Shown here in pieces: positions 3,938-32,480 of a stretch of 37,410 nt of DNA. This DNA comes from a virus: the UHGV virus genome UHGV-1374559; one strand, written 5' to 3'. Position 1 is the first letter of the stretch. Each line of letters begins with the position of its first letter. The translations under genes were made by a program, and so were the position numbers. Below the pieces are notes generated by a model. It had not been told where the DNA came from. It ran no database searches and saw only the letters and a program-made list of their open reading frames with translations.

Positions 3938-4144
3938 GTGTTCATTTTGCTGGAGATTTATTATACGCCAACATCCGCAATAATTGCGGATGCATTGGCT
4001 AAAACATATGAAGTCGTTTCTTTAGACAAAGCTAGAAATATTGCCAAGAAATTTAAGGCTAGTTTAAAGCAGAAAACGGATCTTTATGTGATTGAGGGAA
4101 TTTTAATTGATGCTGGTTATAAAAAAGAGCCAGTGAATTTGTGA
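3938..4144 (+). CDS. hypothetical small protein (GTG start)
   Basis: ORF with RBS GAAAGTGAG. No motifs recognised. Confidence 0.35.
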   Translation: MFILLEIYYTPTSAIIADALAKTYEVVSLDKARNIAKKFKASLKQKTDLYVIEGILIDAGYKKEPVNL

Positions 4145-4315
4145 GAAAGGAATGGAGGATTTGGTCTACCACAAAGAATTCTTTACTCCTTTGAAATTAT
4201 GAAACTAACAACAGAAAAAATAAAAGGATTGTCTCGGATGGAAACACATAAATAATACAGGAATACAAAATTTTAGCCAATAGAAATAACCAAGCGACCA
4301 TTAATTGGAAGATAA

Positions 4316-4594
4316 TTAAGTTTTAAGAGACTTAAACCAGTTCCTGATAATATCTATAATTAATCCCAGAGAAAAATATGAAATAAAATGAATTAAAGAT
4401 GAACTAAACATTCTTACAGAATAAGGTTGATTCATATAAAATTCATCTAACTTAGGGGATTTGATAAGCAGATTCGTGCCTATAAAATCTGTAATAGCAA
4501 ATAGGAATCCCTTATTGTCATAACCACTAACCCAAGTAGTTATAACGATAAGACTGAACAAGCTTAATAGAATAGTGAATAAATACTTTTTCAT
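4316..4594 (-). CDS. small membrane protein (two predicted TM segments), reverse-oriented moron-like gene
   Basis: Strong RBS AAGGAG 8 nt upstream of the minus-strand ATG. Hydrophobic N- and C-terminal segments. Opposite orientation to all flanking genes. Confidence 0.5.
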   Translation of the reverse strand: MKKYLFTILLSLFSLIVITTWVSGYDNKGFLFAITDFIGTNLLIKSPKLDEFYMNQPYSVRMFSSSLIHFISYFSLGLIIDIIRNWFKSLKT

Positions 4595-4660
4595 TTCACA
4601 GGCTCCTTACAAATTCCGTTAATTATTCTAGAGAGATACATTTATAGTATATGGAAATGG

Positions 4661-4685
4661 AATTTAAGACAACAAAAAAGCCGGA
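4661..4685 (-). terminator. hairpin GCCGGA-ttcc-TCCGGC followed by a U-run on the minus strand
   Basis: Stem 4670-4675 / 4680-4685. The A5 run 4665-4669 on the plus strand is a T-run on the minus strand. Confidence 0.4.
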
Positions 4686-4748
4686 TTCCTCCGGCTGTTG
4701 GTAATATTCTCGACACGAATATTATACCATAAACGGGGGAATCAAAGA

Positions 4749-5216
4749 ATGGTACTTTTTGACGTAAAGAAATATGAAACACCAGATGCAAAGGATGTAG
4801 ACATGGAACAAACGAAACATAACGTCAGTGTATTCTTGTCTGCGTACCTTGCTGCTAGATGTCGTGTTGGCCAGCCGAGGGAACCAAAAGTAACAGCTTC
4901 ATTCTCTTTGGTTCCACCATCAACGGCCAATAACGTTTTCGAAGCCGAACAAATGTTAATCCAGAAAGAAGAAGCACAAGAAGAGTTTGATTATCTTCAT
5001 AAGCTTTTTGTTAGAGGTTATTCTGCGATTCAGCATCCGCACAAACCAGATGTTACCGAGCGAAGAAAGAGAATCTTCTATGACCGTTATATCAACGGCA
5101 ATCCGATCTATCTAGCAGCGCAACGGAATTGCATCAGCGAAGAATCAGTGAAACAAGAATCTAATATGATTATTGTTCAATTTGCTTCGGCACTGGAACT
5201 GGTTGCTTTTAAGTAG
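4749..5216 (+). CDS. ArpU-family phage late transcriptional regulator
   Basis: Start moved to ATG 4749 (RBS GGGGGA upstream). Motif …VFLSAYLAARCRVGQP… and the position just upstream of the packaging module are typical of ArpU-like regulators in Firmicute siphoviruses. Confidence 0.55.
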   Translation: MVLFDVKKYETPDAKDVDMEQTKHNVSVFLSAYLAARCRVGQPREPKVTASFSLVPPSTANNVFEAEQMLIQKEEAQEEFDYLHKLFVRGYSAIQHPHKPDVTERRKRIFYDRYINGNPIYLAAQRNCISEESVKQESNMIIVQFASALELVAFK

Positions 5217-5517
5217 CCATTTATTACACTTTTTATACTTCTTTTATACACTTTATCTACACTTCATATACCTTTGAAACGGGTTATTATGATAGTGTCA
5301 AAAAAATAAGAAATGCGACACACTTACACAAATACATTAACGGAACGATTGCCTACTTATTTTTTTGATTTGAGATTACAAGGAAGTAAAAAAATTCTAC
5401 TTTCTTCGTTTAGTCACTTGTGATCTCATTTAGATTCTCTCGCAAACCACCAATTATAAAACTAAAGAAGTGAGGTGAATTTCCTCTCTCTTTTTTCTAC
5501 AGGTTTGCGAGAGTTAA

Positions 5518-5589
5518 TGGAGCATAGCTTAATCGGTAGAGCAGCGATCTCCAAAACCGTTAGTATAGGTTCGAGTCCTATTGTTCCAG
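5518..5589 (+). tRNA. tRNA-Trp (CCA anticodon)-like gene, no encoded CCA end, one A·C mismatch in the anticodon stem
   Basis: Folded by hand: acceptor TGGAGCA/TGTTCCA; D-arm GCTT-AATCGGTA-GAGC; anticodon arm GCGAT-CTCCAAA-ACCGT; variable loop TAGT; T-arm ATAGG-TTCGAGT-CCTAT; discriminator G. Closely parallels Bacillus-type tRNA-Trp. Confidence 0.5.
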
Positions 5590-5770
5590 TAAGTGGCATA
5601 AGCTACTTAAATAAAAAATCGTCAATAAGTCAAATGTAACTACCTTTACGATCAGATGACGGTTAAGATTTTCTTTCCTATCCTAGACTCCGCGTAAGAG
5701 TGCAGTCTTTTTCTTATTCTTTTTTTCAAAAATCTATAGTATTATAGAGAAAAAAAGAATGAGGTTATAC

Positions 5771-6952
5771 ATGATGAATATACAATACATTGGATTCAAT
5801 GAAGAAAATTTCGCAAGTGATATTATTACTTGTTCATCTATCCTAAGTCCAAAAGATTTTGATGATTATGATTTAAACTTTATAGATTTGGATAGTGAAG
5901 AATTATGGTCTGTACTAGAAAATAGCTTCTATCAATACGGAACGAAATATGCTAACGATTTTGTAACAATTCGCAAATTGATAGATAACTCTAAACAGAA
6001 TTTAGTAATTTCATTACCTAAGAATCAAATCTATCAATACGGATTAAAAGATTATCTTGAAAAAGTTCATAAGGGCATCGATTTATTATCTGGTATTACT
6101 ATTGAGCTAATGTATGGTGCAACTCAAACTAAGGTCAATAAAGGAACACTTAGCTCTGATTTTACAATTATGAATGATTCGACTTATTATAGCACGTTAA
6201 CCCAATCTATTAGGAGTAAAAAAGCTACTACAATAAACAGTGGTAATATCTTCGTGACAACACTAAGCATAAACAATTCAAAAGAACTAATGGATTTTTT
6301 AACTGAATTAAGATTAATCAAAAGTAAAACTGAAGAGATCCCAGAATGGATGGGGGAGGTTAAGATGTTCGATGACGTTAAACAGCTTGAAACTATTCAA
6401 ATGACAAAACAAGAAATATCTGATCTTGAAGATAGAATAGAGAAGGCTGAAACACAATTGAATGAGAATAAACGGATGAAATCTATTTTATATACTCAGT
6501 CTGATGAATTGGTTGAAGTTGTTTTTGAAATATTCAAAGAAATGCTAAATGTTGATTTATCAAGATTTGAAGATAAGAAAAAAGAAGATATTTCATTTTC
6601 TATAGGGAATAATGTTTTTATTGGAGAGATAAAAGGTAAAACAAGCAATGTAAAAACGTCTTTTTTATCTCAATTAGATAATCATTTCACGAATTTTATA
6701 GAAGACCATCCAGAAATCCCGGAAGAAAATATCTATAAATTGTTAATTATTAATCATCAAAGGAATAAAGCATTAAGCGAAAGAGATCCGGTGGATCAAA
6801 AACAGATTGATATTGCTAAAGGGAAATATGGCTCTCTTATTATAGAAACAAGTGAACTATTAAAATTATTAGAAAAGTATAGGGAAAATAATCTTTCTAG
6901 GGAAACAATTGCTGAATTGATTACGCAAAAAGGATTATTGAAAGTGGAATAA
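5771..6952 (+). CDS. standalone coiled-coil protein with C-terminal PD-(D/E)XK-like motif (candidate defence nuclease; moron)
   Basis: RBS GAGG 6 nt before ATG 5771. AT-rich. Central heptad-like region (…QEISDLEDRIEKAETQLNENKRMK…). C-terminus has D(ISFSIGNNVFIG)EIKGK then QLDNH, matching D…ExK…Q. Own terminator at 7006..7036. Confidence 0.45.
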   Translation: MMNIQYIGFNEENFASDIITCSSILSPKDFDDYDLNFIDLDSEELWSVLENSFYQYGTKYANDFVTIRKLIDNSKQNLVISLPKNQIYQYGLKDYLEKVHKGIDLLSGITIELMYGATQTKVNKGTLSSDFTIMNDSTYYSTLTQSIRSKKATTINSGNIFVTTLSINNSKELMDFLTELRLIKSKTEEIPEWMGEVKMFDDVKQLETIQMTKQEISDLEDRIEKAETQLNENKRMKSILYTQSDELVEVVFEIFKEMLNVDLSRFEDKKKEDISFSIGNNVFIGEIKGKTSNVKTSFLSQLDNHFTNFIEDHPEIPEENIYKLLIINHQRNKALSERDPVDQKQIDIAKGKYGSLIIETSELLKLLEKYRENNLSRETIAELITQKGLLKVE

Positions 6953-7005
6953 TACAGACGTGAAATCAAACATTGTTTTACAATAATGATTACACCTATG
7001 TACAA

Positions 7006-7036
7006 AAAGATCACACATTCTAGTGATCTTTTTTTG
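7006..7036 (+). terminator. rho-independent terminator (AAAGATCAC-loop-GTGATCTTT + T-run)
   Basis: 9-bp perfect stem 7006-7014 / 7023-7031 followed by TTTTTT. Confidence 0.7.
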
Positions 7037-7192
7037 TATATAAAAAAACACTAGAAATGGGAACTATTGGCTAGGTAGCATTCGTGCAAAAATTGTTGGT
7101 TGCTACTTACAAAAAGAATCTTCTACCCATAAATAGTATAGCAAAAAGTAATTTGCTGAATAAAATACATAAAAACAATTAGGAGAGAGAGT

Positions 7193-7414
7193 ATGAAAAA
7201 TTATTTGTTTGTATCGTTAACACGTAAATATCCGCCACCGAACCACTCGCTCGATGCATCACGTGTTGTAATATCTGTGAGAATAAAGAAGAATGCATCC
7301 ATTGTCGAAACGATGAGAGAATCTACAACAAAAGAGATTGATGCGGCCTATTACGGCGTCGGTTGTTGGGAAGATAAACATATACAAGAGAATATAAAGA
7401 AGTACGTGAGGTGA
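7193..7414 (+). CDS. hypothetical phage protein
   Basis: RBS AGGAGAGAG upstream. No motifs. Confidence 0.4.
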   Translation: MKNYLFVSLTRKYPPPNHSLDASRVVISVRIKKNASIVETMRESTTKEIDAAYYGVGCWEDKHIQENIKKYVR

Positions 7415-7420
7415 TAACAA

Positions 7421-7735
7421 ATGAGTAAAAAAGAACAGATTAAAAAACAGCAGGCACAGTTCTTAGAGATCATGAAGAAGGTTCGTGAGGAGAAAGATAT
7501 AGATGCGCTTGCAGAATTGTTTATTGAAATCATTTCGGTATATGGGCTGAAGATGGATGAGACATCAGCATTACTTTATTACGTTCAGAAAGAAACACTT
7601 GAAGCAGATCACAATGCACAGTTCTTAAAAGAACGATTGAAACTTGATGTTAAGTCGCTAGGTATTGAAGGTGTGCTGCAAGTACAACGTGCGTTGGTTA
7701 ACACTTACCTTTCTAATATTGCCAACAATGATTGA
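7421..7735 (+). CDS. hypothetical phage protein
   Basis: RBS GAGGTGA upstream. No motifs. Confidence 0.45.
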   Translation: MSKKEQIKKQQAQFLEIMKKVREEKDIDALAELFIEIISVYGLKMDETSALLYYVQKETLEADHNAQFLKERLKLDVKSLGIEGVLQVQRALVNTYLSNIANND

Positions 7736-8039
7736 TGTATCATCCAAACAAGCACGAGCAAAGTTCTATGGCTCATCAGAGTGGAGAAGATTAAGACAGC
7801 AATGTTTAGAGCGTGATCATTACGAATGCCAGTGGTGCAAACAAGAAGGTAAGTTAACAACCCAGTATGATTCTATTCTTGAAGTGGATCACATTAAAGA
7901 GTTGGAACATTATCCGCAGCATGCCTTGAATATAGACAACCTAAGAACATTGTGCAAGGACTGTCATAATAAACGGCACGGTAGATTTAACTATAGAGAA
8001 TCGAAAAGAAAAAGAAAGTGGGATGATGAATGGTGGTAG
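7728..8039 (+). CDS. HNH endonuclease (terminase-associated)
   Basis: Start moved to in-frame ATG 7728. Motifs …CQWCK…EVDHI…CKDCHNKRHG…. Position immediately upstream of terS/terL as in cos-type siphoviruses. Confidence 0.7.
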   Translation: MIDVSSKQARAKFYGSSEWRRLRQQCLERDHYECQWCKQEGKLTTQYDSILEVDHIKELEHYPQHALNIDNLRTLCKDCHNKRHGRFNYRESKRKRKWDDEWW

Positions 8040-8356
8040 AGGACAGTTTCAAATCGTTTGATAAAGTAAGTTTTGATTTGTCGAATCAATCAGATGCAAC
8101 TAGTTATTTCGTAACGATTCTTATTCCTGAGGGTTACTTAAACGAATTCGTTAGCGTTTATAGTGAAAATAATCCATTGAAAGAACATTTTGGAGTCGTG
8201 GGAGAAACACAGCTTAAAACTAAAGAAAGTGGTGGACAGCATACCCCCCATCGAAATATTTTGCCCTAAAGTGGGGACTGCGGGAACCGGTGGATGGGGT
8301 CAACTGTCTAAAAATATACGTTAAATTTTTTTATAGGGGGGTGATTGCTATTGAAA

Positions 8357-8668
8357 ATGGCAGATTTGAAAAAACAGTTGATGAGTCAAATTGACGAAAA
8401 CGATCAACTAGAAGTTGAAAAAGTCGAGAGATATCTTGATTTAGTAAAGCTTTATAAAAAAATGAATTCGTCTATTTCTAAGTATGGAACGATTGTAGAG
8501 TTTGAAAACGGAGCGCAGAAATACTTAAAAATCAATCCAGCAATCGCCGAAAAAGTTAAAATTTCACGTGCATTGATTGCTTTAGGAAAAGACCTTAACT
8601 TAGATGAATCAACAAAAATAGTGACTAGCGTTGATGATGATAATTATAGCGAGAGTGACTTAGTATGA
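8357..8668 (+). CDS. terS: terminase small subunit (P27-family-like)
   Basis: ATG 8357 with GGGGGGTGA RBS. About 100 aa. ATGA overlap with terL start. Confidence 0.55.
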   Translation: MADLKKQLMSQIDENDQLEVEKVERYLDLVKLYKKMNSSISKYGTIVEFENGAQKYLKINPAIAEKVKISRALIALGKDLNLDESTKIVTSVDDDNYSESDLV

Positions 8669-10344
8669 TTAAGCAAAAACATGTCGATTACTATATACAA
8701 CAATATAAAAAAGGTGAAATAAAACTTAATAAAGAAAGAATTCAACTAATAGAGTATCTAGAAAGAGATATACTTTCAAGAGATGATATATATTTTAATG
8801 ACAAAATGATAGACGATTGTATCAATTATGGTGAGAAATGGTTTTTTGAATTACAGCCATTTCAAAAATTTTTGATTGCTTTCGTCTTTTTGTATTTTAA
8901 AAAGAATAACAGAAATTTTTATCGTAAATTTCTGTGGATGTTTGGCCGTGGTGGTGGTAAAAATGGGCTTCTTTCTGTCGTTCTTAATTTTTTACAAACT
9001 GAATTACATGGAATTCTAGATTACAATATTTCGATTGTTGCAAATTCAGAAGATCAAGCAAAAACTTCTTTCGAAGAGATTTATAATACAATCAAACGAA
9101 ATAAAACACTTCAAAAAGCTTTTGAGTATGGAAAAACAGTTATAACCTCTAAAAAGACTGGCAGCTATATAAGATTTAGAACGTCGAATGGCGATACTAA
9201 AGATGGTTTAAGAGATGGAGCGGTAGCTTTCGACGAAATTCATCAATACCCTTCGAACAAAGATGTAAAAGTGCATATTTCTGGATTAGGAAAAAAGCCG
9301 AATCCTAGAGAATTTTATGTAGGAACAGATGGATATGTTCGAGAGGGATTTTTAGATTCTCTTAAAGAAAAAGCCAAAAGAGTGTTAAACGGTTCTAGTC
9401 GACCTAATGCTATTTTCCCTTTTATTTGCAAATTAGATTCAGAAGACCAAGTGACAGAATCAGAAAACTGGGAATTAGCAAATCCGATGTTTCATCAACC
9501 TTTATCAGAGTATGCCGAGAGCCTTTTAGAAACTATTTTTGAAGAATACGAAGACTTAGAGGACGATCCGTCAAATAGAGAAGAATTTATGACTAAGCGG
9601 ATGAATTTACCAGTTACAGATTTAGAAAGATCAGTGGCTAGTTACGAAGAAATAATGGACACCAATCGTCCTTTACCAAGTTTAGAAGGTAGACAAGCAA
9701 TTGGATGTTTGGACTTTGCCAGCTTGCGAGATTTTGCGGCATGTGGTCTTTTATTTAAAGATAGGGATGACTATGTTTTTAAAACACATTCATTTGTTAG
9801 AAAGCAATTTGCAGACATATATTATGGATATTCCAGGAAAGCATCAGAACAAACAAAAGAACGATTCGCACCGATAAAAGAATGGGAAAACAGAGGATTA
9901 TTATCTGTAGTTGATGGAGCTACAATTGAACCACAAACAGTTGTCGATTGGTTTGTTGAACAACGATATAAATACGGAGTTACAAAAATTGTTGCCGATA
10001 ATTTCAGAATGGATGTATTGAGACCGTTACTAATAGCTGCGGGATTTGAAGTGGTTGTGATAAAAAATCCTAGAGCAGTCGATAGTTTACTTGCACCGAG
10101 AATAGAAACGGCGTTTGCTAATAGACACATCATTTTTGGAGAAAATCCGTTAATGCGGTGGTACACGAATAATGTATTAGTAAAGACCAACAATGATGGA
10201 AATAAGACGTACTTAAAAAAAGAAGAAGTCAGAAGGAAAACAGATGGATTTAAAGCATTTGTATGCGGTATGTATTTAGCAGATGAACTCACAGATTATA
10301 ATTTTGAAGATGCATTCGATATATTAGAAGAATTAGACTTTTAA
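8665..10344 (+). CDS. terL: terminase large subunit
   Basis: Walker A-like FGRGGGKNG. Size 559 aa. Typical Terminase_1 organisation. Confidence 0.85.
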   Translation: MIKQKHVDYYIQQYKKGEIKLNKERIQLIEYLERDILSRDDIYFNDKMIDDCINYGEKWFFELQPFQKFLIAFVFLYFKKNNRNFYRKFLWMFGRGGGKNGLLSVVLNFLQTELHGILDYNISIVANSEDQAKTSFEEIYNTIKRNKTLQKAFEYGKTVITSKKTGSYIRFRTSNGDTKDGLRDGAVAFDEIHQYPSNKDVKVHISGLGKKPNPREFYVGTDGYVREGFLDSLKEKAKRVLNGSSRPNAIFPFICKLDSEDQVTESENWELANPMFHQPLSEYAESLLETIFEEYEDLEDDPSNREEFMTKRMNLPVTDLERSVASYEEIMDTNRPLPSLEGRQAIGCLDFASLRDFAACGLLFKDRDDYVFKTHSFVRKQFADIYYGYSRKASEQTKERFAPIKEWENRGLLSVVDGATIEPQTVVDWFVEQRYKYGVTKIVADNFRMDVLRPLLIAAGFEVVVIKNPRAVDSLLAPRIETAFANRHIIFGENPLMRWYTNNVLVKTNNDGNKTYLKKEEVRRKTDGFKAFVCGMYLADELTDYNFEDAFDILEELDF

Positions 10345-10356
10345 GAGGTGATAGTT

Positions 10357-10524
10357 ATGTATAAACCACAATACCTAAATATTGTTAGGGCAACGAAATC
10401 AGCTTATGGAAACAATATTGCATATTTCAAAAAGACATTCGTTACTCATAACGGCTATAAATGGGATGTGCCAGCAAAAAAAGAAAATAAATCGGGTCGT
10501 CATTTTTTAGGAAAAATAAAATAA
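10357..10524 (+). CDS. small hypothetical protein (55 aa)
   Basis: ATG with AAGAGGTGA RBS. Below the ORF-track size cutoff. Confidence 0.3.
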   Translation: MYKPQYLNIVRATKSAYGNNIAYFKKTFVTHNGYKWDVPAKKENKSGRHFLGKIK

Positions 10525-10559
10525 ATAGTACTAGATGTCGACGGAAAGGGGGTGAATGA

Positions 10560-11735
10560 GTGAGTTTATTTGACTTGTTAAAAGGTACGTCAGCTAAAAA
10601 CAAAGCTATTCAAGAAATGTTGGATTTTGAGTTTATAAACGACGTATCTACTAGAGCATACTTAAAGCGCTGGGCTTTAGATTCTGTTTTAAATTTTGTC
10701 GCTAGGACCATGTCAACAATGCAGGTACAAATAAGAGGTGCCACGAAAGAAGAATGGGACTATCTACTAAACGTACGTCCCAACAAAGATATGTCAGCGA
10801 ATGATTTTTGGCAAAAATTCTTTTATACACTTTTAAAAAATAACGAAGTGTTAGTAGTTGTTTCCGATGATAATCAGTTATTGATTGCAGATGATTTTTA
10901 TAGAAATGAATATGCACTATACGAAGATACATTTTCGGAAGTAACTACAAAAAACTACACCTATCAGAGGAATTTCAAAATGTCGGAGGTTATTTACCTT
11001 CAATATAACAATGAAAAATTAGATAAGTTCACCGATGGTCTTTTTAATGATTATGGTGAACTTTTTGGTCGTATCTTAGAAGTGTCTATGCGGAATAATC
11101 AAATTCGAGCAGGTGTTTCCATTGATCAAACAGGTAGTTATGGAGATAAAAAGGACGGAAACGGAAGAACCGATCAAGAAAAAATACAGGCATTCGTTAA
11201 TAAGATATACAAATCTTTTAGAAATAACTCGGTAGCAATAGTTCCACAACTGAAAGGTTTTAAATACGAAGAGTACACAAATAAAACGGGCTCGTCTAAT
11301 CAATCTTTGGAAGAATTGGACCAAATGAAAAAGTCATTAATCAATGATGTTTGTCGTGCCATTGGTGTTCCTTCTGCATTAGTACATGGAGAAATGGCCG
11401 ATCTAGAATTTAATCTAAAAGCCTATCAAAAACTTTGTATTACTCAATTGAAGGACAAACTACAATCAGAACTTAATAATAAAGTTTTGGAAAAATATGA
11501 GTACCAACAAGGTGTACGAGTGGTAATCATGAATGTTCTTAAACGTGATCCGTATGAACAAGCTGTACAAATTGATAAATTAATTGCTTCTGGAGTATTC
11601 ACGCCTAACCAAGTGTTAATTGATTTTGAGTATGAAGAATCAGAGGAAGCATTTATGAACGAGCACCATATTACTAAAAACTATGAAAAATTGAAAGGGG
11701 GTGAAGATGAAGATGACAGTGAAAATCAAAGTTAA
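10560..11735 (+). CDS. portal protein (HK97-family)
   Basis: GTG start with AAAGGGGGTGA RBS. Size and position after terL. Confidence 0.8.
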   Translation: MSLFDLLKGTSAKNKAIQEMLDFEFINDVSTRAYLKRWALDSVLNFVARTMSTMQVQIRGATKEEWDYLLNVRPNKDMSANDFWQKFFYTLLKNNEVLVVVSDDNQLLIADDFYRNEYALYEDTFSEVTTKNYTYQRNFKMSEVIYLQYNNEKLDKFTDGLFNDYGELFGRILEVSMRNNQIRAGVSIDQTGSYGDKKDGNGRTDQEKIQAFVNKIYKSFRNNSVAIVPQLKGFKYEEYTNKTGSSNQSLEELDQMKKSLINDVCRAIGVPSALVHGEMADLEFNLKAYQKLCITQLKDKLQSELNNKVLEKYEYQQGVRVVIMNVLKRDPYEQAVQIDKLIASGVFTPNQVLIDFEYEESEEAFMNEHHITKNYEKLKGGEDEDDSENQS

Positions 11736-27500: not shown

Positions 27501-28487
27501 ATGGGTGAAAAAGGAAAATCCATTGATGGTTTGATGAGACACATAAGAAATAACCACAATGTCAGCATTAAAGGTAGTAATGACAAGCAAAACTTACTAA
27601 ATATGGGATATTATCATGGATACAAAGCATCGATGTATATTAAAGAACGAAAAAATATGCAAGAGTTCAAAGATTTTAATGAAGTTAAAGCTGTATATGA
27701 TTTTGATATTGAAATGAAGACAATATTTTATCCTATGTTGGTAAAAATTGAAACTTCTTTGAAAAATAGGCTGATAGATTTTCTCGTAAAAGATGATCAA
27801 TGTGATTTAGAATATATTTATAAAACAAAACTAAGAGACTACGCATCAAAAGAAGTTGGTTCAAAAAAATATAAAAAATATCTTGCAAGAAACCTTAAAT
27901 TGAGAGAAAAGATAGATGAAACTATAGCATACAATTATGGTAAAGGTCATCCGGCTGTACAACATTTTTTTCACTGCAACAAACCACTACCTTTATGGGC
28001 ATATTTTGAAATAATTACATTTGGGGAGTTTGGAAACTTTGTAGCATGTCTAAATGAAGAATATAGAATTATGTTTACTAGCAGTCTGGAATTGCATCAT
28101 CGCGGTTTAAATCAAAACGGAAGAATATTAGAAAATATTATTTTCTGTTTAACAGGCCTCAGAAATGCCACTATGCATAATTCGGTGGTATTTGATTGTA
28201 GATTTAATGATTCTTCAACTTCGAATCAAGTAAAGCAGTATCTTGAACAAGTAACAGATATAAAAAATATTTCATTTGAAACGTTAACAGACTTCATTAT
28301 TCTATTAGTCGCGTTACTAAAAAGAGTGAGAATTACCAAAACAGAGCTGAATAGATATGTTTCGGATTTTGATAAAAGTAGAGAAAAACTTTTTAATAGT
28401 GTACCATTTAACACTTATACAGCAATTATGGGGACAGATGCAAAAAATAAGATTTCTAGTCTTAAATACTTTATAAAAAACAATTAA
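27501..28487 (+). CDS. Abi_2-family abortive infection protein (AbiD/AbiF-like)
   Basis: 328 aa, AT-rich, own transcription unit between lysin and att. Abi_2 assignment is from motif memory, not a search. Confidence 0.5.
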   Translation: MGEKGKSIDGLMRHIRNNHNVSIKGSNDKQNLLNMGYYHGYKASMYIKERKNMQEFKDFNEVKAVYDFDIEMKTIFYPMLVKIETSLKNRLIDFLVKDDQCDLEYIYKTKLRDYASKEVGSKKYKKYLARNLKLREKIDETIAYNYGKGHPAVQHFFHCNKPLPLWAYFEIITFGEFGNFVACLNEEYRIMFTSSLELHHRGLNQNGRILENIIFCLTGLRNATMHNSVVFDCRFNDSSTSNQVKQYLEQVTDIKNISFETLTDFIILLVALLKRVRITKTELNRYVSDFDKSREKLFNSVPFNTYTAIMGTDAKNKISSLKYFIKNN

Positions 28488-28743: not shown

Positions 28744-28772
28744 CTTGAAAATTTGTAGAGTAATGTTTATTA
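28744..28772 (+). promoter_or_regulatory. sigma70-like promoter TTGAAA-N17-TATTAT for the STAS/GHKL operon
   Basis: Hexamers at 28744-28749 and 28767-28772 with 17-bp spacing, about 38 nt upstream of ATG 28810. Confidence 0.45.
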
Positions 28773-28809
28773 TAAATAGTATCAATCTTACAAGAATTGG
28801 AGATAAACA

Positions 28810-29724
28810 ATGTCATTAAGTGTAAAAATACCTTCATCTTTAACAAAATATAAGATTCCACTAGTAGTGAACGAAATACTTACTCCTGACTTAGAGCCTA
28901 AGTCAGACGAAATTATTTTTGATTTGACTGAAGTTACTTGGATTGATCCTTCAGGAGTGGCAGCACTATATAATATTGGGAAGTGGATCGATTGTTTCCC
29001 CAATGACAATATAAAGGTAACCTTCAAGATTGCTGAAAAAGGTACAGGTTCGTTCAAGAATAAAAAAGCTATGGAGTATCTCGAAGATTGTGGTTTTTTC
29101 GAAGAGTTTTTTGGAGCAAGTGACATTTATAAAGAGAATCATGCATATAGAACTACAACACTTCCAATACGAACGTTGGGAGTTGAGCAAAGCTTTAGTT
29201 GGAGATACAGTGTTTTGAAAAGGTGGCTTCAAGCGTCTACGGGGAGGAACCTAGAATTTTCAGGTATACAGGTAGGTGTAGAAGAAATTTTTAACAACAT
29301 TAGGGATCATTCTAATAGGAATATTGGTTGTGTTTTTGGACAGTATTTCCCTAATAATGACGATAGATTAGTTATAACAATTTCCGATTTTGGTTTAGGC
29401 ATCCCCACAGTTATGCGACAGAAGTATGGGGATTTTAAAGATCATGAATTAGTTTTGAAAGCATTAGAAGAAGGAGTATCAACTGAGTCTACACCTGGTA
29501 ATCGAGGTGCTGGATTGCCGAATATAATGAGAAGTTTGACCTCCAATAAGATTGGGACTGTGCATATACTGACAAATTATGCTAAAATTGTTATTAAAGA
29601 TGGGAAAGTTCATTCAGCTATTACAACAAAAAATTTTTATCCAGGAACTTTCTTTGATATAGAGATTGATATTAATAATGATAAATTATATGAAGATGAA
29701 GAAGAGGAGGAATTCACATGGTAA
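28810..29724 (+). CDS. STAS-like domain fused to GHKL (HATPase_c) anti-sigma-factor-type Ser kinase-like ATPase
   Basis: RBS GGAG. N-box-like VEEIFNNIRDHS. G1 box ISDFGLGIP (DxGxG). G2 box GNRGAGLPNIM. N-terminal FDLTEVTWIDPSGVAAL resembles the STAS DxSG phospho-site region. Confidence 0.55.
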   Translation: MSLSVKIPSSLTKYKIPLVVNEILTPDLEPKSDEIIFDLTEVTWIDPSGVAALYNIGKWIDCFPNDNIKVTFKIAEKGTGSFKNKKAMEYLEDCGFFEEFFGASDIYKENHAYRTTTLPIRTLGVEQSFSWRYSVLKRWLQASTGRNLEFSGIQVGVEEIFNNIRDHSNRNIGCVFGQYFPNNDDRLVITISDFGLGIPTVMRQKYGDFKDHELVLKALEEGVSTESTPGNRGAGLPNIMRSLTSNKIGTVHILTNYAKIVIKDGKVHSAITTKNFYPGTFFDIEIDINNDKLYEDEEEEEFTW

Positions 29725-30029
29725 ATATTGAAGTGAAAACGGAAATTGTATCATATGCTTCTAATGATGACGGGAAAAAACTCTATGTCTTAATTTATAG
29801 AGCGTTGATGGACGGTGACAATGTGAATGTTTCATTTAAAGGAATAGACGGATTAAGTTCCTCTTTTATCAATTCAGCGTTCATAGAATTGTTAAATAAT
29901 TTCGATTTCGAGTATATAAAAAGAAAATTGAGTTTTTCACATTCAAATAAACAAATTAATTCTTTAATTTTAAGTCGATTCAAATTTGAAACAAAAAAAT
30001 GTACAGTAAAAAGACCCCAGCTAGTCTAG
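29718..30029 (+). CDS. small STAS-like protein (DUF4325-like), translationally coupled partner
   Basis: ATG overlaps the upstream stop (ATGGTAA). RBS GAGGAGG. About 100 aa with FKGIDGLSSSF motif, typical of small STAS-like partners. Confidence 0.5.
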   Translation: MVNIEVKTEIVSYASNDDGKKLYVLIYRALMDGDNVNVSFKGIDGLSSSFINSAFIELLNNFDFEYIKRKLSFSHSNKQINSLILSRFKFETKKCTVKRPQLV

Positions 30030-30039
30030 GGTCTTTTTT
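30011..30039 (+). terminator. rho-independent terminator (AAGACCC-loop-GGGTCTT + T-run) overlapping operon stop codon
   Basis: 7-bp stem 30011-30017 / 30029-30035 followed by T-run to 30039. Confidence 0.65.
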
Positions 30040-30264: not shown

Positions 30265-30336
30265 GAACTATTGGTTCAGTTGGTTAGAGCCAACCGCTCA
30301 TAGCGGTTAGGTACAGTTCGAGTCCTGTATGGTCCA
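30265..30336 (+). tRNA. tRNA-like sequence, CAT anticodon (Met/Ile2-type), degenerate (T-arm one base short, A·C in acceptor): probable attP core / tRNA 3' remnant
   Basis: Hand fold: acceptor GAACTAT/ATGGTCC with 6/7 pairs; D-arm GTTC-AGTTGGTTA-GAGC; anticodon arm AACCG-CTCATAG-CGGTT; TTCGAGT T-loop but 5' T-stem lacks one G. Lies adjacent to the integrase region. Confidence 0.4.
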
Positions 30337-30384: not shown

Positions 30385-30455
30385 TATGTTAATATTTTTT
30401 TGTTGAAAAACAGAACAAACGTTCGTATAATGTTTCTGATAGGAGAGTGTATCAG

Positions 30456-30941
30456 ATGGTAAGACGAACTAAAAAAGAGTTTAAACCGTATAACGACTAT
30501 GTTGACCGTCCTTTTGAGTTAAAATGGCCTACAGCTTTTCCGTTAGGAGAGTTGGCAGAAGCAATAAAGAGTACAGATGAATATCACGCTCGCAATATTG
30601 AGAGACTGCCACAGCAATCACAGCGACAAATAGAATATTTTTTAGATCGCTCTATTAAGCAAAATAAAGTTTTAGAAATCCAATTAAATTCTTTAGATGA
30701 ATATGAACGAGTTAAGCCCCACGTTTTCGGTGTTTTCCGTGGGATGGCAGAATTCGATGTTGTGCTGATTGGTGAACAAGAAATCGATTTTTATGATATT
30801 AGAAACATTCAGATTCATAATTTCACTAAATGGAGTGAAGAATATACACCTGAAGAAAATCCGTTTGAGGAAGAACCAGAGCACTGCGAAACAATAGATG
30901 AATTTGTGGACGAATATTTCGATGATAAATGGATAGAATAA
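30456..30941 (+). CDS. YolD-like family protein (orphan, no adjacent Y-family polymerase)
   Basis: ATG 30456 with AGGAGAG RBS. …FELKWP…VFGVFRGMAEFDVVLIGEQEIDFYDIRNIQI pattern resembles YolD-like proteins (from memory). Confidence 0.4.
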   Translation: MVRRTKKEFKPYNDYVDRPFELKWPTAFPLGELAEAIKSTDEYHARNIERLPQQSQRQIEYFLDRSIKQNKVLEIQLNSLDEYERVKPHVFGVFRGMAEFDVVLIGEQEIDFYDIRNIQIHNFTKWSEEYTPEENPFEEEPEHCETIDEFVDEYFDDKWIE

Positions 30942-30991: not shown

Positions 30992-31266
30992 GTATGTAAA
31001 ATATGCGAATAGTATTTGATGAAATAAAAATAGACTTTGAAATGATCAGAATGCAAAACCAGTGCAAAATATTTTGCATTTCTCTACATTTTTATCCTTT
31101 TCTTATAGAAATTAAAAGAGCTAAAACCTTATAAAATAAAGGTTTTAGTTCTTTTTTGTTTTTCTCTACTTTTCTAAAAATGGAGACGGCGGTCGTAAAA
31201 CCTAGCTTGTAAATGCTGGTTTTATGGCTGTTTTTAACTACTTGATGCAAAAATAATGCAAAAAAA

Positions 31267-32397
31267 TTATACATACATTTGTTTCATCACTTCATTAACA
31301 GCATTACTTTCTTTTTGTTCCATCTCGTCTAAAATGTGTTGATAGGTTTGTAAAGTGGTTACAATGTCCTTATGTCCAAGGCGACGAGATACATATTTTA
31401 TATTTATTCCTTTATACAACATTATTGAAGCATGGGTATGCCTTAAACCATGACAAGTCAATTCTTTTGTACCGATCTTTCTACAGAATTTACGAAGGAC
31501 TTTATTTACAGCTGTATTCGATACAAGTTCCATATTGTCATTTAAAAATACTAAATTATTTTCGTTGCGTAGACCAGATTTTAAATAATATTCTTTTTGA
31601 TGTAACTGTAATTTCTTTAATAAATCGAGCGTATCATCATCAATAGTGATTATTCTTTTTGATTGATAATTTTTCGTATTAGAGAATGTATTTGTATATT
31701 TATAGTCCCAAGTTTTATTTACTTTTACAGTTTTATTTTTGAAGTCGATACAGTCCCAAGTCATGCCTATAATTTCTGAAAAACGGCAACCAGTCGCAAT
31801 ACCAAACAGAATAATAAATCGAGAAGTATAAGTGGGTTTTATACCTTGTAATATTTCGTGAACTAGATGGATAGATTCTTGATAATTCAAATATTTCAAT
31901 TCCTCGTGCTTAGGATTCTTTTTGCCCATTGCTTGTACTCGATAGGTAGGGTCTCTATGAATAATGCCTTCTTCCAAAGCATCTTTAAGAGCAGCTCGCA
32001 TATACGTATGATGTTTTTTCACTGAAGCTGTAGCGTGTGTTTCCCCATAGTCATTCAGGGCCTTTTGATATTCTTGTCGAGTCAATTCTTTTAATTTTGT
32101 ATCAGGAAAATATTTCTCACTAAAATCAACAGCCCGACGAATATCACCGTCATTGTCTTGTGATAACTTGCCTTTCCTGTAAACTTCAAACCAATTTCGA
32201 AAATACTCATGAAATAATTTTTCGCCTTCTTTTAGTGAGTATCCTTTAGAATACCTAGCTTCAATTTCTGAGGCTGCCAATTGCGCTTCTTTTTTTGTTG
32301 AAAACCCATTGACGCTTTTTGTTTTATATCGGCCATCTTTATCTTTATAAGAGACTCGAAATTGCCATCCGCTTTTCAATTTTTTTATACTTGCCAT
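31267..32397 (-). CDS. int: tyrosine integrase (phage integrase family)
   Basis: Start set to MASIKKLKSG (RBS GGGGTGA). N-terminal arm-binding/SAM-like region. C-terminal …HGLRHTHAS…LGHKDIVTTLQTYQHI catalytic motifs. Confidence 0.85.
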   Translation of the reverse strand: MASIKKLKSGWQFRVSYKDKDGRYKTKSVNGFSTKKEAQLAASEIEARYSKGYSLKEGEKLFHEYFRNWFEVYRKGKLSQDNDGDIRRAVDFSEKYFPDTKLKELTRQEYQKALNDYGETHATASVKKHHTYMRAALKDALEEGIIHRDPTYRVQAMGKKNPKHEELKYLNYQESIHLVHEILQGIKPTYTSRFIILFGIATGCRFSEIIGMTWDCIDFKNKTVKVNKTWDYKYTNTFSNTKNYQSKRIITIDDDTLDLLKKLQLHQKEYYLKSGLRNENNLVFLNDNMELVSNTAVNKVLRKFCRKIGTKELTCHGLRHTHASIMLYKGINIKYVSRRLGHKDIVTTLQTYQHILDEMEQKESNAVNEVMKQMYV

Positions 32398-32480
32398 TGT
32401 ATCACCCCAAATATTCACTTAAAAACCCCTAGCATGAATCGAACATGCTAGAACTCACCAGAGAGGGGATAAGAAAAAAA

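Follow-up and report, generated by a model that had tools for sequence, protein, structure and literature searches.

A two-gene STAS–kinase operon in UHGV-1374559

The virus genome UHGV-1374559, analysed here over its whole length of 37,410 nucleotides (nt; the window), carries a two-gene operon whose genes and products we call A and B. A combines an N-terminal STAS domain with an RsbW/SpoIIAB-type GHKL kinase whose ATP-binding boxes are all intact, and B consists of a single STAS (DUF4325) domain. The two open reading frames (ORFs) are exactly those that an initial annotation of the sequence had reported, and its assignment of STAS and GHKL domains to A and of a DUF4325-type STAS partner to B is borne out by fold, motifs and family profiles. 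The pair resembles VapK and VapS of the VapKSC system, which was described together with CapK/CapS by Chambers et al. (EMBO J 2026; PMC13373217). The operon contains the following features.

28745–28773, + strand: candidate sigma-70 promoter, TTGAAA-N17-TATTAT (consensus scan, 10/12 matches)
28799–28802, + strand: Shine–Dalgarno sequence GGAG, 7 nt 5′ of the A ATG (read from the sequence)
28810–29724, + strand: gene A, STAS plus GHKL Ser-kinase-type (VapK-like; phrog_3364), ORF of 304 amino acids (aa)
28810–29148, + strand: N-terminal STAS domain of A, residues 1–113
29158–29679, + strand: GHKL (Bergerat-fold) kinase domain of A, residues 117–290
29284–29310, 29386–29400 and 29500–29517: N-box, G1 box and G2 box of the A kinase
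29692–29721, + strand: C-terminal acidic tail of A, EDEEEEEFTW-COOH, family-specific and absent from VapK and CapK
29704–29724, + strand: coupling junction, with the ribosome-binding site GAGGAGG (29704–29710) inside A and the ATGGTAA overlap (29718–29724)
29718–30029, + strand: gene B, DUF4325 STAS (VapS-like; phrog_9989), ORF of 103 aa
30008–30041, + strand: intrinsic terminator over the B stop codon (RNA fold and U-run)

The elements behind the translational coupling of A to B are both present: GAGGAGG stands 7 nt before the B ATG, and the two genes share an overlap of 7 nt. The terminator that had been noted across the stop codon is real. Its hairpin (30008–30038) encloses the TAG stop, folds with −15.1 kcal/mol (z = −4.6; 0 of 200 shuffled sequences as stable) and is followed by a U-run, a structure overlooked by the consensus scan. 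The promoter is a weaker case. The element is there, but it lacks statistical support: the AT-rich stretch holds 14 promoter-like sites against 21 expected from shuffled sequence. Because such sites are no commoner than in shuffles, we regard the A–B promoter as plausible only.

The AlphaFold2 model of A (predicted local distance difference test score, pLDDT, 88.8) begins directly with the STAS domain, with a strand at residues 2–6. The nearest solved folds of the kinase domain are RsbW and SpoIIAB, while the N-terminal half has SulP-transporter STAS domains (8.9) and RsbV (7.5) as structural relatives. In a 46-sequence alignment of the A family, the residues of the Bergerat boxes are invariant (E159, N163 and H167; D193, G195 and G197; N231, G233 and G235), as is a STAS-type motif, P47-x-G49...N55. 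Since Pro47 replaces the phospho-Ser of SpoIIAA, the STAS domain of A is non-phosphorylatable. The expected STAS and HATPase domains are thus evident from fold and motifs, but single-sequence Pfam scores stay below the gathering cutoffs (HATPase_c_2, 19 versus 27.4 bits; HATPase_c, 17.9 versus 26.4; STAS, 15 versus 22.6); the homologue of A in Marinitoga MPV1 exceeds the STAS cutoff (25.8 versus 22.6). A matches phrog_3364 (3.8e-50) in PHROGs, where both this family and phrog_9989 are of unknown function. That A is a fragment of a longer sensor kinase is ruled out by 286 close relatives, all of about 300 aa and aligning end to end.

Two features of A stand out within its family, which is acidic overall and has few conserved basic residues. 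W44 (codon 28939–28941) aligns with VapK F54 and CapK W68, and 195 of 203 members have an aromatic residue (F, Y or W) at this position. The second feature is the acidic tail: among 243 members, 88% have a net charge of −3 or lower over the last 10 residues, and the chain closes with W in 168 members, with F in 27 and with L in 12. In the window, the codon for the terminal W overlaps the B ATG. Those Bacteroidota members in which the two genes are free of overlap keep the acidic tail with a hydrophobic or aromatic end (...IFDF, ...EFFL, ...IFEL), which identifies the tail as a protein-level feature.

B passes the Pfam gathering threshold for DUF4325 (PF14213; E = 4.6e-13, 49.1 bits versus a cutoff of 23), as the initial annotation had anticipated. 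In Pfam, the VapS/CapS-type STAS domain goes by the name of DUF4325 (PMC5499597). The fold of B resembles RsbV and SpoIIAA, and a Ser–Ser dyad, S48/S49 (29859–29864), precedes F50 at the start of helix 2 and provides the candidate phospho-acceptors. S49 is invariant in the B family and S48 is at least 90% conserved; S48 aligns with VapS S48, and S49 with CapS S54. The C-terminal helix is basic (mean charge +3.3 over the last 30 residues), and the 8 residues beyond residue 95 have low pLDDT. Family members are 94–117 aa long. Neither Pfam nor the structural model shows a winged helix-turn-helix (wHTH) or other DNA-binding domain in B.

Profile–profile comparison places the pair closest to VapKSC. 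We took the sequences of VapK, VapS, CapK and CapS from the supplementary files of PMC13373217 and that of VapC from PDB 9Z7O. With hhalign, the A family matches VapK over both domains (99.3%, E = 1.4e-20, 246 columns) and CapK over the kinase domain only (94.6%). The B family matches VapS with residues 1–95 against 1–95 (97.8%, E = 6.7e-13), and CapS weakly (21.6%). A sequence search of the whole PDB with B likewise returns VapS (9z7o_A) as its best match.

Both relatives have been characterised (PMC13373217). CapK is switched on by single-stranded DNA (ssDNA), predicted to lie between its STAS and kinase domains, and its W68 is essential. It phosphorylates Ser54 of CapS, a STAS–wHTH protein, whereupon adjacent immune operons, among them CBASS, Bub and Thoeris, are de-repressed. 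VapKSC comprises VapK (STAS–GHKL), the antitoxin VapS (STAS with a C-terminal helix) and the PIN toxin VapC (PMC13373217; PDB 9Z7O); it protects E. coli from one phage and needs VapK F54, VapS S48 and VapC D28 to do so (PMC13373217). The face that bears the phospho-site is the homodimer interface in CapS and the toxin-binding interface in VapS (PMC13373217). A PIN-domain classification (group PIN.4; PMC5499597) contains an early sighting of what is now VapKSC.

Distribution and genomic setting

An exhaustive profile search returns 356 clusters of A at 50% identity (E ≤ 1e-30). A degenerate-pattern scan of one genome per species gives 74 loci, in Firmicutes, Alpha-, Beta- and Gammaproteobacteria, Desulfobacterota, Spirochaetota, Bacteroidota and Saccharibacteria, to which phage records add further ones, including Thermotogota (Marinitoga MPV1) and Burkholderia, for at least seven phyla in all. 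A DUF4325 gene directly follows the A homologue in 79 of 79 loci with A, among them other prophages and sites beside defence genes. Most of these loci share the 7-nt overlap, as ATGGTAA, ATGGTGA or ATGGTAG.

The pair has no constant companion. All-against-all clustering of neighbours within 6 kb finds lineage-specific synteny only and no conserved third gene, and a Pfam survey of the two nearest genes on each side at 66 non-redundant loci finds no neighbour family in more than six members. Neither tblastn nor jackhmmer with VapC yields a significant match, be it in the window or in the 80 loci searched, and the top 25 families listed for the nearest neighbours at the 66 loci (two genes per side) include no PIN family.

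The toxin-less, acid-tailed family is widespread, with enrichment on prophages and next to restriction systems. The pair follows the endolysin gene at the prophage end in at least seven different prophages of Lactobacillales and Bacillus; the hosts and phages include two E. faecalis prophages, E. mundtii, another Enterococcus, Lactococcus garvieae, Bacillus mobilis and the Streptococcus agalactiae/dysgalactiae phages Javan132/39/140, LYGO9 and JX01. It lies in immunity or integrase regions in prophages of Kozakia, Burkholderia and Marinitoga, in Kozakia between a cI-like helix-turn-helix (HTH) gene and a KilA-N/ANT antirepressor gene. The gene table of the paper on Francisella phage KIRK lists a 293-aa hypothetical protein followed by a 112-aa DUF4325 protein in the repressor/integrase region. 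In oral streptococci, A starts 21 nt after hsdS of a type I restriction-modification operon; in the loci L007–L011, L013, L040 and L060 (~4000–11200) the pair ends the hsdR-hsdM-hsdS operon and a HigA-like HTH gene comes next. Loci checked individually show the pair directly adjoining type ISP/IIG, type I HsdR or type III enzymes or an SNF2/DpdE-like helicase. The PADLOC models GajA, PD-Lambda-1, AriA, SoFic, CapP, HEC-01B and mad each match 1–3 nearest-neighbour proteins, some of the mad2 matches being the methyltransferase part of type IIG enzymes.

Surroundings of plain housekeeping genes are common as well. A class-Ic aminoacyl-tRNA synthetase gene lies directly upstream on the same strand in L017, L018, L024, L052 (~8150–9990), L076 and L078/L079 (8384–9919); the enzyme is of the GlnRS type in four betaproteobacterial loci and of the GluRS type in Flavobacterium, where the gap is 0–3 nt. 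The kinase gene is split into two ORFs beside an intact STAS gene in L040, L052, L062, L066 and L071, and L049 encodes a kinase without the acidic tail and has no STAS gene downstream. A costly gene may be decaying in these loci, or the cause may be an error of sequencing or assembly, several of them being metagenome-assembled genomes (MAGs). In a long-read Candidatus Ozemobacteraceae MAG (OZ223236.1), a 727-aa protein (L043:10807–12990) joins a DUF4325 STAS domain to HATPase_c_3 and a NucS_C-like PD-(D/E)xK domain, and its gene follows an A homologue with the usual 7-nt overlap. From its domain composition, this fusion looks like a GHKL-Shedu-type effector with an N-terminal STAS switch, which suggests that an A-family kinase can precede a nuclease effector gated by a STAS domain.

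The window itself reads as the genome of a temperate Enterococcus siphovirus in circularly permuted order: terminase, portal, tape measure, holin and GH25-LysM endolysin genes, then the cargo, then the integrase gene on the opposite strand. The neighbours of the operon are as follows.

27501–28487, + strand: AbiD/Abi_2 gene (Pfam Abi_2 1.1e-23; PADLOC AbiD 2.8e-26; phrog_2158)
30265–30336: tRNA gene, anticodon CAT (Met, or Ile2 if modified; Rfam tRNA model, 37.4 bits)
30447–30941: orf164, with its own near-consensus promoter-like site TTGAAA-N17-TATAAT at 30403–30431
31267–32418, strand opposite to the phage modules: integrase gene, after the cargo in the permuted window

In E. faecalis chromosomes, the same prophage reads endolysin, AbiD (Abi_2), A, B, orf161 and host genes, and this order upholds the earlier placement of the pair in the slot between endolysin and attR. 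The Abi_2 gene that had been reported immediately upstream matches all three resources listed above. With a GC content of 28.8% and its own terminator, it forms a separate transcription unit outside the A–B operon and serves as context. AbiD, A–B and orf164 jointly make up a low-GC cargo island that lies between the endolysin gene and the attachment site.

The tRNA(CAT) gene between the cassette and orf164 has several acceptor-stem mismatches. It is the only tRNA that Rfam gives, and a tRNA remnant upstream of the cassette is unsupported. orf164 has an acidic C-terminus and no match in Pfam, NCBIfam, PADLOC or PHROGs; its relatives at 41–57% identity lie in Enterococcus and Listeria phage fragments. 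We considered orf164 as a third component and ruled it out: a second E. faecalis prophage carries it at 92% identity together with a kinase A of only 50% identity, other taxa lack it, and it is set off from B by a tRNA gene as well as by a terminator and a promoter-like site. Between orf164 and the integrase gene, an AT-rich hairpin of about 17 bp (31108–31157) is terminator-like on both strands and falls where attP is expected.

A putative phospho-switch and its alternatives

On balance, we take A–B to be a self-contained two-protein phospho-switch of the CapK/CapS–VapK/VapS kind, expressed in the lysogen as phage cargo. A self-contained switch with a defence flavour fits both the homology to VapK/VapS and the prophage-end, immunity-region and restriction-modification contexts, and the operon is probably lysogen-expressed cargo of a temperate phage. 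The documented traits of the relatives are an ssDNA-activated kinase, Ser phosphorylation of the STAS partner, anti-phage protection and a DNA-damage response (PMC13373217).

By analogy with these systems, an infection or DNA-damage cue would activate A. The cue would probably be ssDNA lodged between the two domains of A and stacking against W44, the counterpart of CapK W68 and VapK F54. Activated A would phosphorylate B on S48/S49, and phosphorylation would break a complex formed through the phospho-site face. Since none of the 79 loci, which span at least seven phyla, encodes an effector close by, the partner of B is expected to be A itself or a widely conserved component of the cell or phage. 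We suggest, tentatively, that the output lies with B, as it does with CapS and VapS, in which case the acidic tail of A would be a docking or autoinhibitory element. The tail could dock on the basic C-terminal helix of B, act in cis as an ssDNA mimic, or mimic the C-terminus of the single-stranded DNA-binding protein SSB. Overall, the switch would either shield the lysogen, through phage exclusion or through abortive infection, or mediate a response to DNA damage.

Several observations weigh against this proposal. The cassette has neither an attached output domain nor a linked effector, which makes the output step conjectural. The CapK lysines predicted to contact ssDNA, K237 and K239, are replaced by invariant P181 and N183 in A, whose family conserves few basic residues, so an ssDNA trigger rests mainly on one aromatic residue. 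Tail charge does not covary with the charge of B (Spearman about −0.03, 68 pairs), and for that reason none of the options for the tail is supported yet. PADLOC-DB v2.0 gives no match for B and only a spurious DrmA fragment for A (E = 0.005). Finally, many loci lie among housekeeping genes, for example after glnS/gltX, with no visible defence or phage genes.

A second reading, possible but rather doubtful, makes the kinase the effector of a toxin–antitoxin-like unit, with B as a stoichiometric pseudo-substrate that buffers A until a trigger phosphorylates and releases the B pool. A would then phosphorylate conserved host or phage proteins, or its SSB-like tail would bind or poison ssDNA-handling proteins, and the infected cell would arrest. 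The kinase is the sole enzyme of the cassette, the 79 loci contain no linked effector, and the acidic, aromatic-ended tail is the one conserved gain over VapK and CapK and coincides with the loss of the toxin; strict translational coupling further suggests that a fixed stoichiometry is needed. In both characterised relatives, however, the STAS protein and not the kinase carries the output. The five loci with a disrupted A and an intact B speak for a kinase effector, but the ratio of disrupted A to B is close to that expected from gene length. The glnS or gltX genes directly upstream in two phyla also suit a kinase effector. HipA, a toxin kinase, targets GltX, and adjacency to two paralogous enzymes in two phyla is far above random placement, yet it may stem from only two insertion events.

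A narrower version of the kinase effector is unlikely in our estimate. It describes a toxin-free, kinase-only module for immunity or stress, in which the GHKL kinase, once cued by a nucleic acid or by infection, is the effector, the STAS protein is a pseudo-substrate 'antitoxin' and the tail, [DE]n-F-x-W-COOH, resembles the SSB C-terminus. Such a tail would either keep the kinase's own ligand groove inhibited or tether the kinase to universally conserved SSB-interacting proteins; the latter could account for a two-gene unit being functional in seven phyla. One form of this module would target class-Ic aminoacyl-tRNA synthetases, at which the upstream glnS/gltX genes hint.

It is quite improbable that the pair is an accessory sensor that relays ssDNA from restriction or repair into post-translational control of a neighbouring defence system, here AbiD, as a counterpart to CapKS, whose control is transcriptional. 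The streptococcal pairs 21 nt behind hsdS, the restriction enzymes of types ISP/IIG, I and III that adjoin the pair in other phyla and the AbiD gene in the window all suit such a role, and a restriction-modification system likewise precedes about 20% of capKS loci (PMC13373217). Against this, neighbours differ wholly between loci, most loci have no defence neighbour within two genes, and A–B is flanked by a promoter-like site and a terminator of its own. B lacks a DNA-binding domain, and it is unlikely that a single small STAS protein would recognise partners that are unrelated.

Less probable still is an ssDNA sensor that serves the phage itself, in the lysis–lysogeny decision or prophage induction, with B acting on a repressor or antirepressor. 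The relatives do respond to DNA damage (PMC13373217), and the pairs of Kozakia, Francisella KIRK and Marinitoga MPV1 sit in repressor, antirepressor or integrase regions. In Lactobacillales prophages, however, the cargo slot with the pair and the immunity region lie at opposite prophage ends, and many copies lie outside prophages, in restriction-modification operons and housekeeping contexts. Immunity-region cargo such as rexAB is, moreover, typically defensive.

An RsbW/RsbV-type device against host SigB partner switching, which the initial annotation had entertained, or a decayed VapKSC remnant is very improbable: the kinase does fold most like RsbW and SpoIIAB and B like RsbV and SpoIIAA, and the pair does resemble VapKSC minus its toxin, but no sigma factor or PP2C phosphatase stands beside the pair in the window or among the families listed for neighbours at the 66 loci, and 356 clusters, invariant catalytic residues, a kept overlap and a novel conserved tail are unlike decay. 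Its presence in at least seven phyla (Firmicutes, Proteobacteria, Bacteroidota, Spirochaetota, Thermotogota, Desulfobacterota and Saccharibacteria) and outside phages means that the cassette cannot rely on the sigma network of any one host. To our knowledge, enterococci and streptococci lack SigB and RsbVW. The probability left over by these readings falls to something else.

CapKS and VapKSC establish a GHKL kinase with a STAS partner as a sensor of DNA damage or ssDNA that feeds immunity (PMC13373217), and A–B is the same sensor pair without a recognisable output domain. Its family sits where temperate phages keep defence cargo and where restriction systems lie. The target of B, or of the acidic tail of A, would point to a new effector principle for prophage immunity or to an ssDNA-sensing link to a conserved cell process, and a function would be gained for a common unannotated pair of Enterococcus, Streptococcus agalactiae/dysgalactiae, Lactococcus and Bacillus prophages.

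Comparison with known kinase–STAS systems

VapKSC is the closest of the known systems. A shares the STAS plus GHKL architecture of VapK, without an HTH domain and with homology over the full length, and carries W44 where VapK has F54, which is required for protection. B is a DUF4325-type STAS protein with a Ser at the same place as in VapS; in both systems the kinase gene precedes the STAS gene, and the contexts are enriched in defence genes. There are also differences. Identity is only about 22–27%, and B, which terminates at the point where the VapS STAS domain does, has no counterpart of VapS residues 94–116, which block VapC. A has an acidic, aromatic-ended tail whereas VapK ends in ...RLTSELG, and the A and B genes overlap by 7 nt.

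With CapK/CapS, the pair shares a 'WID' motif at the ssDNA-stacking Trp ('TWID' with W44 in A, 'AW68ID' in CapK), a 'YL..GFF' motif, a STAS partner with an S-S-F phospho-site motif and a frequent position directly behind a restriction-modification system. Unlike CapK, A has no N-terminal HTH domain (none in Pfam, and only the GHKL domain aligns), and it has Pro and Asn in place of the two CapK lysines. CapK ends in ...FFLGYD, without the acidic aromatic-ended tail of A. B, in contrast to CapS, is a lone STAS domain of 103 aa without a wHTH. No operon follows A–B, which is succeeded by the terminator, the tRNA gene and orf164 with its own promoter-like site.

The RsbW/RsbV and SpoIIAB/SpoIIAA modules follow the logic proposed here: the substrate of a GHKL Ser kinase is a STAS antagonist, phosphorylated where helix 2 starts. 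A–B differs from these in having no sigma factor and no PP2C phosphatase, in the fusion of the kinase to its own STAS domain, non-phosphorylatable at Pro47, and in its reversed, kinase-first gene order, its mobility across phyla and its prophage location. The suggestion of a phage-carried RsbW/RsbV-like regulator of known role therefore does not hold, given the missing sigma factor and phosphatase and the fused STAS domain. The GHKL-Shedu protein VcSduA (PMC12137116) shares its domain pair, HATPase_c_3 and PD-(D/E)xK, with the Ozemobacteraceae fusion only, which is a single example; B of the window carries no effector domain.

The initial annotation had considered the module not described as such, and this is correct in part. 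The related CapK/CapS and VapK/VapS were characterised in 2026 (PMC13373217), but the toxin-less two-gene form is absent from that work, whose survey retained only loci with vapK, vapS and vapC. NCBIfam has no match for A or B, and we found no mention of a two-gene, toxin-less, acid-tailed family in the searchable literature. The kind of system to which A–B belongs, a GHKL kinase–STAS immune sensor, has been known since 2026; its two-gene, toxin-less form is the new part.

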